A DNA stretch of 64,000 nucleotides from assembly GCF_030013205.1 (NCBI RefSeq), contig NZ_CP122648.1. One strand, written 5' to 3'. The translations under genes and the position numbers were made by a program. The DNA comes from Escherichia coli (lineage in GTDB: Bacteria; Pseudomonadota; Gammaproteobacteria; Enterobacterales; Enterobacteriaceae). How positions within the stretch are numbered: position 1 is the first letter of the stretch; every line of letters starts with the position of its first letter. Shown here one piece after another: positions 11,326 through 19,586 of the stretch. The notes below the pieces were generated by a model. The model worked only from the letters and a program-made list of their open reading frames with translations. It did not search any database and had not been told where the DNA came from.

Positions 11326-11418
11326 CAGCACAAATAAAACACCAGATTAAATAAGAAAACGTGAAAACCATCCGAATTAACGGAGGCATTCACACACGTA
11401 AATAATGGAGATACAAAA

Positions 11419-11829
11419 ATGAACGCAAAAGAAAAAGGCATTATAACTGCGCTAAAAAATATATCGGAGACCGCAAACAGAGCCATTCAGGATGCAACAA
11501 ATGCAGGAATGATTGGGCCTGCCACCACAGCCATGATGATAGCAAGAGTAACCGCCGAAGCAGCCGAAATTATCGAAAAACAGGATGCTGAACTAACGGT
11601 TCTCAGAACACAATCAGTCACCGAACTGGATTTGTCTAACACCGGACGCCTTATTTACACAATTGGCTCGGAGCCACAGCAATACACCATTATCGTCGGA
11701 TTACAGGATAAATACCTGATCACTCCTCACCCCATAAGGGAATCAGAAATTCTGACAAATCTCCGCCTGATAGAGCGCTCTCAAGTCGCATTCATTGATG
11801 ACGCACAGCGCACCGTATTTAACGCATAG
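11419..11829 (+). CDS. hypothetical protein
   Basis: 136-aa ORF. Confidence 0.45.
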   Translation: MNAKEKGIITALKNISETANRAIQDATNAGMIGPATTAMMIARVTAEAAEIIEKQDAELTVLRTQSVTELDLSNTGRLIYTIGSEPQQYTIIVGLQDKYLITPHPIRESEILTNLRLIERSQVAFIDDAQRTVFNA

Positions 11830-11853
11830 GGTTACTGGACAAAGGGGGGCGCA

Positions 11854-12057
11854 ATGGCAATTAAGCGTTTTTCCGTCATTCGTTTCACATCCAGAGGGCG
11901 TGAATACGAGGTTGACGAACGGCTGATTAAAACGCTCGACCGTCACCGTTCGCAACCTGACGCGCATCACATTTACCTCACTGACGACACTTACTTCTGC
12001 GCCACCAACGTGGTGCAGGTGAATCTTATCAGACAGGTACAGGAGTCACGCAGATGA
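11854..12057 (+). CDS. hypothetical protein
   Basis: 67-aa ORF, overlapping stop/start with the next gene. Confidence 0.4.
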   Translation: MAIKRFSVIRFTSRGREYEVDERLIKTLDRHRSQPDAHHIYLTDDTYFCATNVVQVNLIRQVQESRR

Positions 12058-12299
12058 CCATTCTGGACTACATCACAGCCAATCCGGGTTGTAGCGGTGG
12101 AGAAATCGCCGCCGCGCTGAATACCCCAACCACAGCCATTAATGCTGAGTTGCGCCGACTCTGGCGTGACGGCTTAGTCATCAGAGAAGAGCGCAAAACA
12201 GGCGGTCGGTTCTCTTACCAGGTAAACCCGATGCCGTTCGGGTGTGGCAACCCACTTACTCACATGTTTAACCAGCTACTGAAGGAAGCCAGAGCATGA
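12054..12299 (+). CDS. small winged-helix-like DNA-binding protein
   Basis: 81-aa ORF, ...GEIAAALNTPTTAINAELRRLWRDGLV... resembles a winged helix. Confidence 0.45.
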   Translation: MTILDYITANPGCSGGEIAAALNTPTTAINAELRRLWRDGLVIREERKTGGRFSYQVNPMPFGCGNPLTHMFNQLLKEARA

Positions 12300-12595
12300 G
12301 CACCATCAACCACCAGGAACTACGCGAACTGGCGACTGACCTGCAACGAATGGCAACGCATCAAAAATTACTGGCGTTTCGCGCAATGCTCTCGCCATCT
12401 GCCGTGTTGGCACTACTGGATGAGCTGGAGCACGCCAGAACCACAGCGCCAGCCATTCGCCTGACGCTCCATCATGAAATCGCTGATTTCTGTGCACCAC
12501 TGGGTTCACCTGGCGAACCGGAAACACCGGAAGCAATGCAGCGAGAGCTGCTGCAACGCATCGACAAGGTTTTTGATTTTTTCCTTAACCAGTAA
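12296..12595 (+). CDS. hypothetical protein
   Basis: 99-aa ORF. Confidence 0.45.
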   Translation: MSTINHQELRELATDLQRMATHQKLLAFRAMLSPSAVLALLDELEHARTTAPAIRLTLHHEIADFCAPLGSPGEPETPEAMQRELLQRIDKVFDFFLNQ

Positions 12596-12606
12596 GGGAT
12601 CGCAGC

Positions 12607-12810
12607 ATGAACAAAAAGACCTGGTTTCGCGCATACATGTGGGCGCTGGTATGCGTCCTCGTTTCTCTCATTCTGTATGCAGGACTCCTCCCCCGAATGA
12701 TTTCATCAGACAGCTCCTTCCTGGTATTGCTGGGCATTTTCATTGCCATGCTGTACCCGGCAGGCGTTGTTCGCCTTTTCAGTAAGTACATCAAGGAAAT
12801 CAAACAATGA
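12607..12810 (+). CDS. small two-TM membrane protein, partner of downstream SPFH protein
   Basis: 67 aa with two hydrophobic helices; stop overlaps the SPFH start. Confidence 0.5.
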   Translation: MNKKTWFRAYMWALVCVLVSLILYAGLLPRMISSDSSFLVLLGIFIAMLYPAGVVRLFSKYIKEIKQ

Positions 12811-13637
12811 AGAAATTCAAACTCTTTCAGATTATCCCTCTTTTTGCCGCCATCCTGCTGGTTGGTTGCGATCGTGTTGAGCCAGGTAATGTGGGCATCA
12901 AAGTCAACAAACTGGGCGACGACAAAGGCGTCGGTGAAGTGGTTGGTGTTGGCCGCTACTGGACTGGCTGGAATACCGAGGTTTACATCTTCCCGACCTT
13001 CAAACAAATGAAGACCTACGATGAGCCGTTCAGCTTCCAGATGAGTGACGGCACAACCATCGGCTATCACATCGGTGTGGCCTACAAGGTTGATCCATCC
13101 AAAGTTACTACAGTGTTTCAGACCTACCGCAAAGGCGTGGATGACATTACCGACACTGACCTGCGCCAGAAGATCGCCGATGCACTCAACCGACTGGCCA
13201 GCAAAATGACCACCGACAAATTTATCGACGGCGGGAAATCTGAACTACTGGATGCAGCTCTTAAAGACATTCAGGAGGAAATGACACCCATCGGTATTCA
13301 GGTAATGAGCCTCTCATATGTGGGTAAGCCGGAGTACCCGTCAACCGTTATCGACAGCATTAATGCCAAAGTCACGGCAAACCAGAAAACCCTGCAACGC
13401 GAACAGGAAGTCAAGCAACGTGAAGCAGAAGCCAACATGTTGCGCGCAGAAGCTGCCGGACAGGCTGATGCCATTCGCACAAAAGCCCAGGCTGAAGCCG
13501 ACGCCATTCGTTTACGCGGTGAAGCTCTGCGCCAGAATCCCGGCGTTATGGAGCTGGAAGCAATCAACAAATGGAACGGCACGCTGCCGCAATACATGAC
13601 CAGCAATACCGCTGTTCCGTTTGTTCCGGTGAAGTAA
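12807..13637 (+). CDS. SPFH/band-7 (prohibitin-like) lipoprotein
   Basis: Lipobox LLVGC after signal peptide; SPFH-like core and Ala/Glu-rich coiled-coil C-terminus. Confidence 0.75.
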   Translation: MKKFKLFQIIPLFAAILLVGCDRVEPGNVGIKVNKLGDDKGVGEVVGVGRYWTGWNTEVYIFPTFKQMKTYDEPFSFQMSDGTTIGYHIGVAYKVDPSKVTTVFQTYRKGVDDITDTDLRQKIADALNRLASKMTTDKFIDGGKSELLDAALKDIQEEMTPIGIQVMSLSYVGKPEYPSTVIDSINAKVTANQKTLQREQEVKQREAEANMLRAEAAGQADAIRTKAQAEADAIRLRGEALRQNPGVMELEAINKWNGTLPQYMTSNTAVPFVPVK

Positions 13638-13643
13638 TTAAAC

Positions 13644-13668
13644 CCGGCCAGTGAAAATCACTGGCCGG
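13644..13668 (+). terminator. 11-bp-stem hairpin after SPFH gene
   Basis: ccggccagtga-aaat-cactggccgg; a T-run follows about 12 nt later. Confidence 0.4.
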
Positions 13669-14004
13669 AGCAGTATCAGGATTTTTTAGTATGCCGTTCT
13701 CACAAAAAAACCGCTTGCCATGCCGCAATCAGTCAGGTTACATTTCCGCTGCACCTCATAAAACGGGTGCCGGGATTTCCACCCCGCTGACAACCAAAGC
13801 GCACAACCGCGCCAGCGGTTTTTTTGTGCGTACCGTATCGCCACGTCTTTTTCGCACACGAATTATGGTGGGGCGTATGGGGCCGACTTCGGTCGGGCCG
13901 GGTTCTTTGGTTGCCGGTTGTGGAAACCCTGTACGTCTCACCACCCCGAGTTTTCCACCTCTGGATGGTGAGTTTTCAAAACTTACAACCAAAGAGGCCA
14001 CACC

Positions 14005-14235
14005 ATGGCAAACCGCAAACAACAGCGCACATACGCTGCGCGTCGTCACATCCAGACTGAAATCAACCGCAGACTTTTCCGCGCATTCCGCGTCGCGCAA
14101 ATCATGCACATCAATATGCTGCATGAACGCAGTCACGCACTATCGAACAGCTATTCCGCCTCTGTTTTCAGCTATCTGGCGGATGATCTGCGCGAGCTTC
14201 AGCAGCTCATCCAGCAGCAAAACAAACTCCATTAA
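14005..14235 (+). CDS. hypothetical basic protein
   Basis: 76-aa ORF with AGAGG RBS. Confidence 0.4.
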   Translation: MANRKQQRTYAARRHIQTEINRRLFRAFRVAQIMHINMLHERSHALSNSYSASVFSYLADDLRELQQLIQQQNKLH

Positions 14236-14307
14236 TTCCTGTTCCGGGCCTTTCCTGCACCTTGCGGCGGGAGGCCTTCGCACATCTGTAACAAGAGGAG
14301 TGCCGCA

Positions 14308-14673
14308 ATGATTCTCGCCAACGACTTTCTTGAATACCTGCTCAACACAGAGCGTGATCTTGCCGTTCGCGTGCGTGACCGTTATGACATGTACCTGAAA
14401 TCCCTGCCTGTACCGCAGCTCGCTGACGGAAAGATTGTTATTGATGGCCGCTACATGATTGACAGCCACGAGGGAAATTACAGGCTTTACCGCATTGAAG
14501 GCGGCACCCCGTCCGTTATTGGCATTTACCAGCGCCCATCCTCTGCGATCGTCGATGTGATTGCAGACAGCATCCGCATCACACATCACTATGCCGACAC
14601 AGAAGACACCGTGCTGGAAATTCAGCGGCTGGCTACAGTCTGCCGCGACACCCTGAATGGCATGACGAAGTAA
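14308..14673 (+). CDS. hypothetical protein
   Basis: 121-aa ORF with AGAGGA RBS. Confidence 0.45.
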   Translation: MILANDFLEYLLNTERDLAVRVRDRYDMYLKSLPVPQLADGKIVIDGRYMIDSHEGNYRLYRIEGGTPSVIGIYQRPSSAIVDVIADSIRITHHYADTEDTVLEIQRLATVCRDTLNGMTK

Positions 14674-14679
14674 ATCACT

Positions 14680-14967
14680 ATGACAGCAGAGTACATCAGG
14701 GACTGGCAACAACCGCGCCACGCAGTGGGGCGTGAAGGAACGGGGATCCCTGCTCCTGAAGCGGTGGAAGGTGTCGCAACGTCACAGGCCGACATTATCG
14801 ACCGTTTTAATGCGCTGGAAACCCGCCATCAGCAGGACAGCCAGAAAATCACTTTACTGACCACAGAGCTGACAGCACTGAAGGAAAAACTGCGCACGCA
14901 GGACGGCGATCCGCAGAACCGGTTCACCGCAACGGGCGCAGCCTCCGATCAACTGGCTGACTTCTGA
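14680..14967 (+). CDS. hypothetical protein
   Basis: 95-aa ORF. Confidence 0.4.
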   Translation: MTAEYIRDWQQPRHAVGREGTGIPAPEAVEGVATSQADIIDRFNALETRHQQDSQKITLLTTELTALKEKLRTQDGDPQNRFTATGAASDQLADF

Positions 14968-14990
14968 TAAGACAAAGGAGCAAATTTTTT

Positions 14991-15254
14991 ATGAATCTGG
15001 TGATGTCAGATATTACCCGCAACAAGCTGGGTTGCTATATGGCGCAGCAGGCGTCGCTTAACAACATCCCGGTATCTGCACTGGTATCGCGATTTACCGT
15101 GGAACCCTCGGTGTCCGCCATTGCTGCCGCACTGCATGTGCACGGTGTGCAACGCGTGGAAATAATCGAACCCACACAGAATATGGCCATCAGCGACATA
15201 CAGGCGGCGCGCTGTGAGTCATTCACCATCAGCGAAGGTGGACGCAATGAGTAA
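14991..15254 (+). CDS. hypothetical protein
   Basis: 87-aa ORF with AAGGAG RBS; overlaps the gpI start by 8 nt. Confidence 0.45.
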   Translation: MNLVMSDITRNKLGCYMAQQASLNNIPVSALVSRFTVEPSVSAIAAALHVHGVQRVEIIEPTQNMAISDIQAARCESFTISEGGRNE

Positions 15255-18442: not shown

Positions 18443-19059
18443 TGGCATTCAGAATGAGTGAACAATCACGTACTGTAAAAATTTATAACCTGCTGGCCGG
18501 AACTAATGAGTTTATTGGTGAAGGTGACGCATATATTCCACCTCATACAGGGCTGCCAGCCAATTCTACAGATATCGCCCCACCGGAAATTCCTGCTGGC
18601 TTTGTGGCAGTTTTTAACAGTGAAAATGAATCGTGGAATATTGTTGAAGACCATCGTGGTAAAACGGTCTATGACGTGGCATCGGGGGACGCGTTGTTTA
18701 TTTCTGAACCCGGACCGCTACCAGAGAATGTCACCTGGTTGTCGCCAGCAGGGGAGTATCAGAAGTGGGACGGCGTATCCTGGGTGAAGGATGAGGAAGC
18801 AGAAAAACTGTTTCGGATACGGGAAGCGGAAGAGAAAAAGGCAAGGTTGATCCAGGAAGCAACAGATAACATCGCAATTCTGCAGGATGCAGTTAATCTT
18901 GAAATAGCAACAAACGAGGAAAATTCACAACTGGATTCCTGGAGAAAATACAGAGTATTAGTGAGTAGAATTGACACCAGTACAGCTCCGGATATCGTAT
19001 GGCCAGAGCTGATGAATCAGGGTTATGTGCGGGAGGACGAGCAGATAACTTCAGACTGA
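18442..19059 (+). CDS. tail fiber assembly protein (gpG-like)
   Basis: 205-aa ORF immediately after H with overlapping stop/start. Confidence 0.7.
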
Positions 19060-19586
19060 AATTTAGTGATGAATGTTGAATCATCTGGAATATCATGCAA
19101 TACCAATGCATGAGCACCTATTGTGACATTGTTTCCTATACGCACTTTGCCACCAAGAATGGTGGCATTACAACCAATGGTCACATTATGTCCTATAACA
19201 ATATCCATATCATTAAAATCACCACGCAGCCCAATAGTTACCCCTGGTTTTATTGAACAATTTTCACCGATTGTTACTTTGTGACCGATAACAACACTGT
19301 TGAGATAAGAAATATCAAAGCCTTTCCCTATATTTACAGTTAAAGGGACTGTTACATTATATTTATCAAGAATGAAACGTTCTATTTTCCCCGCAATCTT
19401 CCGACAGCATCCGCCTTTATCAAAAAGGTATTTGGCTATGCGCCACCAAAATAAATAACGAACTCTTCTATGTTTTATTGCGCGAACAATTGCCTTTCGC
19501 CAGGAGAAAGGACGCTCGCTACCGATTACTTCATAGTGAATACAATCTTTAAGTTCATTAATATTCATATCTCTATTATTCAGCAT
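19023..19586 (-). CDS. hexapeptide-repeat (LbH) acetyltransferase, AT-rich cargo gene
   Basis: Repeated [LIV]-G-x-x-x-x motifs ([22 protein letters not shown]...); AT-rich; sits at the P2 Z/fun position. Confidence 0.75.

Follow-up and report, generated by a model that had tools for sequence, protein, structure and literature searches.

Why would a phage carry a gene for a cellular membrane scaffold? SPFH proteins are universal as organisers of membranes; their tasks in the cell are still under debate, and according to a 2026 paper it is unclear why a phage genome should encode an SPFH lipoprotein (PMC13239085). The same question is raised by a degraded prophage in a 64,000-nt stretch of the Escherichia coli contig NZ_CP122648.1. 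This whole stretch is called the window below, and all positions are given in its coordinates. Within the prophage, a gene for a 67-amino-acid (aa) protein with two transmembrane (TM) segments overlaps the start of a gene for a 276-aa SPFH/Band 7 lipoprotein precursor (Table 1). We find that the two genes are accessory cargo of the prophage and that the same pair is kept by temperate and virulent phages of diderm bacteria, where the partner belongs to a family distinct from the NfeD proteins that accompany cellular SPFH genes. We propose, tentatively, that the pair builds a scaffold on the periplasmic face of the inner membrane that may exclude competitors or protect the envelope during lytic growth.

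The lipoprotein and its two-helix partner

Both open reading frames (ORFs) have exactly the coordinates and the lengths given by an earlier annotation that had been made from the letters of the window alone (the sequence-only reading). The larger product is an SPFH protein, as that reading had supposed. The Pfam profile Band_7 (PF01145) matches residues 23-209 with an E-value of 1.8e-30, covering positions 2-176 of the 176 in the model, and the RefSeq label of the gene is already "SPFH domain-containing protein". The AlphaFold2 (AF2) model, with a mean predicted local distance difference test score (pLDDT) of 92.7 and a predicted template modelling score (pTM) of 0.73, is laid out as an SPFH alpha/beta core (residues 21-176), a 65-residue Ala/Glu-rich helix (residues 179-243), which corresponds to the coiled-coil tail of the sequence-only reading, and a short C-terminal helix. 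When the whole chain was submitted to Foldseek, subunits of the HflK/HflC, prohibitin, erlin, stomatin, QmcA and flotillin cages were returned with a probability of 1.0 and E-values down to 8e-14, at an identity of only 15-18%, and the top matches were HflC/HflK chains. The viral structure neighbours were all named just "Band 7/SPFH". From these models, the full-length fold is strongly predicted to be that of a cage-forming SPFH subunit.

In phiP27 (GenBank record), in Stx2 phages and in phiEaP8, the SPFH gene is called "serine protease". We do not accept this label, which is found in many phage records: no protease domain was detected and Band_7 was the only domain found.

The classification as a lipoprotein is borne out by a signal peptide followed by the lipobox Cys21. 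The N-terminus (...AAILLVG-C-DRVEPG) fits the lipobox consensus [LVI][ASTVI][GAS]C, the lipidation itself being predicted. The C-DRVEPG stretch is invariant in the enterobacterial homologs retrieved, and the lipobox Cys is conserved in at least 90% of the paired family alignment, fusions included, as is Ser33 in the loop of the partner. Since Asp at position +2 is a Lol-avoidance signal in Enterobacteriaceae, the lipoprotein should, by the enterobacterial +2 rule, be kept in the inner membrane by Asp22, facing the periplasm. The +2 residue is S, T, E or Y in other lineages, and some homologs from enterobacterial virulent phages (GAP31 and Hena1) have Glu or Tyr there. The family can do without the lipid anchor: a member lacking the lipobox Cys exists in roseophage DSS3_MAL1 (locus L104, 1453-2322). 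This homolog has an N-terminal hydrophobic helix that looks like an uncleaved TM anchor, and it still has a two-TM partner upstream.

The partner has two TM segments by hydropathy (residues 6-33 and 31-58), and its AF2 model is a helical hairpin (H3-32/H37-65, pLDDT ~90), in agreement with the two helices that had been called from the sequence. A hairpin is again obtained when the partner is modelled fused to the SPFH protein. Two residues of its loop, LLPRMISSDSS, stand out in a 33-member family alignment, with Pro29 and Ser33 conserved in at least 90% of the sequences. Because the N- and C-termini are basic, and because natural fusions carry basic linkers on the cytoplasmic side, an N-in/C-in topology is predicted, with the conserved Pro/Ser turn in the periplasm.

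The window protein has no Pfam, NfeD or PDB match, and its 33 relatives have no consistent match to a holin or toxin family of Pfam. A profile search with the partner family and a search of the PDB gave no structure, and the only names among the matches were "hypothetical" and "putative membrane protein". We ruled out that the partner is an NfeD protein, since 0/33 partner sequences match Pfam NfeD (PF01957) and a protein of 67 aa with two TM helices is too short for the C-terminal NfeD OB-fold. A class II holin or pinholin was also rejected: the topology fits, but the location is early or accessory in every backbone examined and there is no holin match in Pfam. Judged by its sequence, the partner is a member of an unnamed two-helix inner-membrane family.

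Distribution, pairing and natural fusions

Close relatives of the mature SPFH coding sequence, with 74-91% DNA identity and 84-98% protein identity, are found in phiP27 and Stx2 phages, in P1-like phage-plasmids such as RCS47 and in Fraca. Of 5,426 complete E. coli genomes, 1,586 (~29%) contain a copy, and plasmids account for 393 of the matched places. A two-TM ORF of 62-78 aa overlaps the SPFH start in each of the phiP27/Stx2, P1-like and Fraca backbones. In the window, the stop of the partner and the start of the SPFH gene share the sequence caATGAag (ATGA). Among 84 close loci, the small ORF overlaps the SPFH start in 83, by 4 nt (60 loci) or by 20 nt (22 loci), and the only locus without an overlap is cut by a contig end. 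The translational coupling proposed in the sequence-only reading is supported by these overlaps. The partner gene is unannotated in the reference phages phiP27 (L003, 2762-2950), RCS47 (L004, 2730-2966) and phiEaP8 (L094, just upstream of 2447).

At greater distances, an exhaustive search yielded 221 cluster representatives of the SPFH protein at E <= 1e-30, and tblastn located it in 384 GenBank phage genomes. The strictly virulent carriers include N4-like Schitoviridae, rV5-like Vequintavirinae, LUZ24-like phages, Ounavirinae, phiCbK, crAss-like phages, Lak and jumbo phages, and Mx1. Temperate phages and phage-plasmids (Stx/phiP27, P1-like, SSU5-like and Fraca) are also among the carriers. 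The pair itself was found in all of these temperate groups and, in more distant copies, in strictly virulent N4-like, rV5-like, crAss-like and Mx1 phages. Every host named among the carriers is a diderm bacterium.

We sampled the gene context in 17 GenBank phage backbones and five metagenomic contexts. An upstream two-TM protein with the turn motif P-x-[LM]-[IV]-S-[AS]-x-[SD]-[TD]...G occurs in 14 of the 17 backbones, and in GAP31 and Hena1 one short ORF lies between partner and SPFH gene. The partner is a separate gene in four of the five metagenomic contexts and is fused in the fifth (P0156). The family alignment does not contain any conserved stretch of 7-10 residues. Throughout the backbones examined, the pair keeps to early or accessory regions and is absent from lysis and morphogenesis modules, and in every backbone it lies in sense orientation within repressor-controlled early operons.

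Partner and SPFH protein are naturally fused in about 25 of the 150 best representatives. These fusions share one order, i.e., a hairpin, a basic linker, a third hydrophobic segment ending in the lipobox Cys, and the SPFH domain, and the loop motif is kept. As natural fusions are Rosetta-stone evidence, they suggest that partner and SPFH protein work together. Signal peptidase II may cut the fused proteins at their internal lipobox. We regard the distant fusions with long basic linkers as genuine. The 347-aa cluster P0001, on the other hand, was discarded as a meaningful E. coli fusion; it has 8 members only and looks like a frameshift joining overlapping P1-type ORFs.

The two genes differ in their conservation. 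Between four E. coli phage backbones, the mature SPFH protein keeps its 84-98% protein identity, the partner 25-65% and the signal peptide 32-58%, and high DNA identity begins at about the lipobox. P88-type and P1-type SPFH copies differ by 91 synonymous and 5 nonsynonymous codon differences. As the codon differences are overwhelmingly synonymous, we read the SPFH body as being under strong purifying selection. What the partner contributes is, to judge by the same alignments, tolerant of large sequence change outside the Pro/Ser turn.

An accessory cassette in the early operon

The host element of the pair is a P88-like prophage (Xuanwuvirus, Peduoviridae), degraded and integrated beside dmsABC. 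The window aligns collinearly with phage P88, at 95% identity. Window positions 11850-12596 and 13701-14700 align to the sister Xuanwuvirus phage P884B11, in which only 17 bp lie between the two blocks. At the same site, Citrobacter phage Shae_phiSM has a different insert, of 578 bp, that encodes a DNA-binding protein, and the pair is also missing from phages 569R5, 705R2 and another P88-like phage. Outside this lineage, the pair of RCS47-type P1-like phages occupies the C1-controlled ban-operon slot that is held by the TerB-like tciABC genes in reference P1. In phiP27 and Fraca its place is the early-left side, 5′ of xis-int, with which it shares the strand. Otherwise collinear P88-like phages either have or lack the segment 12597-13700 at a fixed site, and this polymorphism and the tciABC swap establish it as accessory cargo in a variable slot. 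The sequence-only reading was thus right to treat the pair as cargo, and the pair is not a core morphogenetic gene set of P2-family phages.

That reading had also placed the pair at the end of the early block, which we correct here. In intact P88 the pair (gp11/gp12) lies 3′ of an ead/Ea22-like gene and 5′ of the derepression gene and replication gene A, i.e., in the middle of the early operon. Its terminal look stems from the loss of most of gene A and of the head genes in the decayed prophage of the window.

Table 1. Features of the locus in window coordinates
Feature	Position	Strand	Evidence and remarks
Accessory cassette, 1,104 bp (small gene, SPFH gene, hairpin)	12597..13700	+	Comparison with P88-like phages lacking the cassette
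67-aa two-TM partner gene	12607..12810	+	ORF; phrog_1130 "membrane protein", E 1.3e-22
276-aa SPFH/Band 7 lipoprotein precursor gene	12807..13637	+	Pfam PF01145; phrog_200 "lipoprotein", E 8.5e-112
Predicted signal peptide (aa 1-20) and lipobox Cys21, Asp22 at +2	12807..12869	+	MKKFKLFQIIPLFAAILLVG followed by C-D
Hairpin, 11-bp stem and 3-nt loop	13644..13668	.	Fold -23.9 kcal/mol, z = -4.0; inside the cassette, directly 3′ of the SPFH stop
Promoter-like site	13715-13744	+	Consensus scan; precedes isrK/C4
isrK Hfq-binding small RNA	13751-13825	+	Rfam, 64.3 bits vs gathering score 50
C4 antisense RNA	13861-13948	+	Rfam, 80.5 bits vs gathering score 45
76-aa "derepression protein" ORF	14005-14235	+	3′ of C4

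The strong hairpin noted behind the SPFH gene is real and conserved: 0 of 200 shuffles folded as well, and its arms show compensatory changes in other P88-type copies. On the + strand there is no adjacent T-run, and the scan rates the hairpin as terminator-like on the minus strand only. We rejected the hairpin as an integral part of the module, since it is not present after the P1-like, phiP27 and Fraca copies, though it lies within the P88-lineage indel. A consensus scan, which weak or non-sigma-70 promoters could escape, revealed no sigma-70-like site before the pair, either in the window or in RCS47. In phiP27 there is a weak sigma-70-like site inside the small ORF.

A proposed periplasm-facing scaffold in phage development

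We hypothesize that the two proteins form a two-component inner-membrane scaffold which acts in superinfection exclusion or envelope protection, in lytic development or after induction. We give this proposal, its structural part included, a probability of about 0.4. The lipidated Cys21 of the 276-aa protein, directly before the first SPFH strand, would hold it on the inner membrane facing the periplasm, and translational coupling would supply the partner in a fixed ratio. The SPFH protein would then oligomerise on the periplasmic side of this membrane, as a ring or cage, and the hairpin partner would be embedded beneath the cage as an anchor or a client, in contact with it via the Pro/Ser turn. 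The pair would be co-transcribed with early genes, from Pe in P88, on the PL side in phiP27 and Fraca and in the C1-controlled ban operon in P1-like phages. In this way, a patch of inner membrane might be fenced off or stiffened during the early stage of infection or following induction, passage of a second phage genome or of a colicin-type agent across the envelope would be blocked, and the membrane of the infected cell would be kept intact.

We favour exclusion or envelope protection because of the early context, the predicted periplasmic location, the restriction to diderm hosts, an analogy with early exclusion proteins and the tciABC swap. A periplasmic function fits the host range, as all named hosts are diderm. 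The exclusion proteins in question, T4 Imm/Sp, T5 Llp, P22 SieA and phi80/N15 Cor, are small membrane proteins or lipoproteins encoded outside structural and lysis modules. They are expressed early and act at the inner membrane or in the periplasm. Unlike the module, they are not SPFH scaffolds, and there is no detectable homology between them and it. The tciABC genes of P1 resemble it as a small envelope-associated accessory cassette in the same ban-operon slot; their proteins are unrelated to those of the pair, and their function (tellurite/colicin resistance) is annotated by homology alone in the P1 record.

It is reasonable to consider that exclusion might act during lytic growth. The sequence-only reading had suggested a module for superinfection exclusion or abortive infection (Abi). 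Defence of a lysogen, whether by Abi or by an exclusion system expressed in it, is not favoured by our results, since the pair has no PADLOC match and no recognisable promoter of its own and is common in strictly virulent phages. In PADLOC-DB v2 the SPFH protein matched no family, and the partner matched only PDC-M18B, with E 0.0078 and 0 significant stretches.

Several observations weigh against the proposed scaffold. Arg at +3 might weaken the retention of the lipoprotein in the inner membrane, and localisation may differ across the family. No recognisable partner was seen in three of the 17 backbones, i.e., LUZ24-like Ab22, phiEa104 and phiCbK, which carry the remotest homologs. The combination of nearly identical mature SPFH proteins with partners of only 25-45% identity argues against an extensive co-evolved interface, and the oligomerisation, read from the predicted fold, and the contact with the partner are both predictions. 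Neither PHROGs nor Pfam nor PADLOC gave any similarity to known superinfection exclusion proteins, and in the literature searched we found no functional study of phage SPFH lipoproteins and no link between them and exclusion.

A wider hypothesis would make the early-built, periplasm-facing viral SPFH cage an ancient, hitherto unrecognised phage function that controls what crosses or damages the inner membrane, whether it keeps out incoming phage genomes and colicins or shields the cell from host immunity that acts on membranes. Such a function would be common to temperate and virulent tailed phages with diderm hosts from Enterobacteria to Myxococcus and Bacteroidota. In this generality we consider it somewhat doubtful.

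Alternative functions

The frequency of the module in strictly virulent phages would also suit a role in counter-defence or membrane maintenance, where the cage stabilises the membrane and the proton-motive force against Abi effectors or premature triggering of the holin. It would then protect the phage's own replication and not exclude other phages. SPFH proteins do organise and stabilise membrane microdomains, and NAD+ salvage and tRNA repair genes, which serve counter-defence, are among the neighbours. According to depositor annotation, NAMPT/NMNAT genes flank the module in Mx1 and a ribose-phosphate pyrophosphokinase gene accompanies it in crAss-like cr85_1; an RtcB ligase (phiCbK, L087), a tRNA nucleotidyltransferase (phiEa104) and tRNA genes (P1-like phages, Pokken) are found elsewhere. 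This association is anecdotal, however, and most accessory genes of large phages lie in early regions in any case. A periplasmic orientation would be odd for opposing effectors that are activated in the cytoplasm, and no homolog is known as an anti-defence protein. We hold this role to be unlikely. A viral mimic of HflK/C, whose cage captures or insulates FtsH or another inner-membrane protease or channel and so alters protein turnover, seems to us decidedly unlikely, even if in temperate carriers it could tune the outcome of the lysis-lysogeny decision or of induction. Among characterised families, HflK and HflC give the best sequence matches (NCBIfam, E ~1e-5; PDB 7vhq/7vhp HflK, E 6e-4), and they provide the top Foldseek chains. 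To our knowledge, they are the only periplasm-facing SPFH proteins of E. coli, and the pairing of an SPFH protein with a protease is a classic theme of the superfamily. The scores are nevertheless far below the family cut-offs, at 23.5 bits (TIGR01933) and 24.3 bits (TIGR01932) against 159.4 and 134.4, and for this reason we rejected the SPFH protein as an HflK/HflC orthologue. Prohibitin, erlin and stomatin match equally well in structure, and we know of no CII-type FtsH-sensitive switch in P2-like, P1-like or virulent phages, which counts against mimicry. A link to proteases through the "FtsH" and "ClpX" neighbours in N4-like phiEaP8 was dropped, as these are generic AAA+ ATPases, far below the family cut-offs and without a protease-specific match.

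If the pair were instead expressed in the lysogen, the hairpin could be a latent pore-former or holin-like toxin that is caged by the SPFH protein and freed on infection by another phage to kill the cell. In its size and its predicted N-in/C-in two-TM layout, the partner matches class II holins and small membrane toxins; a tight 1:1 coupling and fusions recall the logic of toxin-antitoxin pairs, and the cassette lies in a variable cargo slot of a P2-family prophage. This form of Abi is nonetheless improbable: there is no cytoplasmic sensor domain and no PADLOC match, the partner has no consistent holin or toxin match in Pfam, the consensus scan found no promoter for lysogenic expression and the pair lies within repressed early operons. 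Suicide of the infected cell also makes no sense in virulent phages, where the module is abundant. Expression in the lysogen is likewise assumed by lysogenic conversion, in which the lipoprotein would alter the envelope (capsule, serum resistance, vesicles) and act on host immunity as a TLR2 ligand. The precedent, by analogy, is PM0222 of Pasteurella multocida, a prophage-borne "HflK/C-like" SPFH protein that was detected in wild-type cells and in outer-membrane vesicles and activates TLR1/2; a deletion mutant is attenuated in virulence and altered in its capsule, its adhesion and its sensitivity to serum (PMC9872710). The presence of the module on Stx-converting phages and in the 1,586 E. coli genomes would agree with such a role. 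However, PM0222 is only a putative relative of the phage protein, TLR2 activation is generic to lipoproteins, and a virulence function cannot explain the wide presence of the module in virulent environmental phages of non-pathogens. We think lysogenic conversion improbable as well.

Relation to known SPFH systems

Among cellular systems, HflK/HflC come closest in architecture. They share with the phage protein an SPFH core, a long wall-forming helix and a C-terminal segment, an N-terminal anchor directly before the SPFH domain and, by prediction, the periplasmic position of this domain on the inner membrane, and they give its best, though weak, sequence and structure matches. The differences are an identity of ~17%, a single phage-borne, mobile SPFH gene in place of a K/C pair, a lipid anchor in place of a TM helix and, as neighbour, a 67-aa hairpin protein that is not an SPFH protein.

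The sequence-only reading had likened the pair to chromosomal NfeD/SPFH operons. The likeness holds for gene adjacency and coupling, since a small membrane-protein gene is directly coupled to the SPFH gene in QmcA-YbbJ, YqiJ-YqiK and archaeal stomatin-STOPP; in the solved QmcA-YbbJ complex (8z5g, one of the Foldseek matches), the YbbJ partner sits with the cage. It fails for the partner, in which there is no NfeD domain. QmcA and YqiK, moreover, face the cytoplasm, whereas the phage SPFH protein is a predicted exported lipoprotein.

Eukaryotic stomatin and flotillin offer a conceptual parallel. A membrane hairpin and a lipidated Cys by the SPFH domain recur in the phages, split over two polypeptides or fused. 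The anchors have no sequence relationship, and the lipidation would be by Lgt/Lsp and not by palmitoylation, so that this is an analogy only.

Novelty and significance

Phage SPFH genes are already known and annotated, and the copy in the window does not stand out within its very large family. In the literature searched, we did not find a description of the non-NfeD partner family, of the fusion forms, or of the periplasm-facing lipoprotein design across temperate and virulent phages. A compact lipid-anchored SPFH protein with a hairpin protein of 60-80 aa has been kept by hundreds of unrelated phages. If the wider hypothesis is true, a definite role in the conflict between virus and host would for the first time be assigned to an SPFH scaffold, one with a new, non-NfeD partner family. 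The small size of the module would make it a tractable minimal system for the study of SPFH cage assembly around a client. If the module controls envelope permeability in infection, it bears on phage-phage competition, on phage-therapy cocktails and on prophage-driven traits of pathogens. As a practical matter, several reference annotations lack the partner gene, and "serine protease" is a frequent wrong label for the SPFH gene.

Neighbouring features of the prophage

The cassette adjoins an isrK/C4 immunity module directly downstream. The order of isrK, C4 and the derepression ORF is that of the P1/P7 immI-like C4/antirepressor arrangement, here within a P2-family prophage. The interval 13691-14311 carries three different annotations: RefSeq has an "ash family protein" pseudogene, P884B11 a 205-aa "transcriptional regulator" and P88 a minus-strand hypothetical gene. 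The 206-aa ORF in this interval has an odd, low-complexity composition and overlaps the isrK and C4 RNA genes. Given this composition and the overlap with two RNA genes, the coding-sequence calls are probably spurious.

The prophage extends over ~7500-28000. Portal, terminase and head genes have been deleted, and tail genes, integrase, repressor and cox are kept. At ~14680-15115, replication gene A, scaffold gpO and capsid gpN persist as short pseudogene fragments joined together. Upstream of the cassette, a 136-aa ORF (11419-11829, + strand) is not found at this position in the P88 reference and is preceded by a sigma-70-like site at 11377-11406; it is possibly another small piece of cargo inserted into the early region. 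A serine acetyltransferase gene, which may be another cargo gene of the prophage, lies at ~19020-19570 on the minus strand (L001, 20624-21169), beside the tail-fibre assembly gene and on the opposite strand to it.

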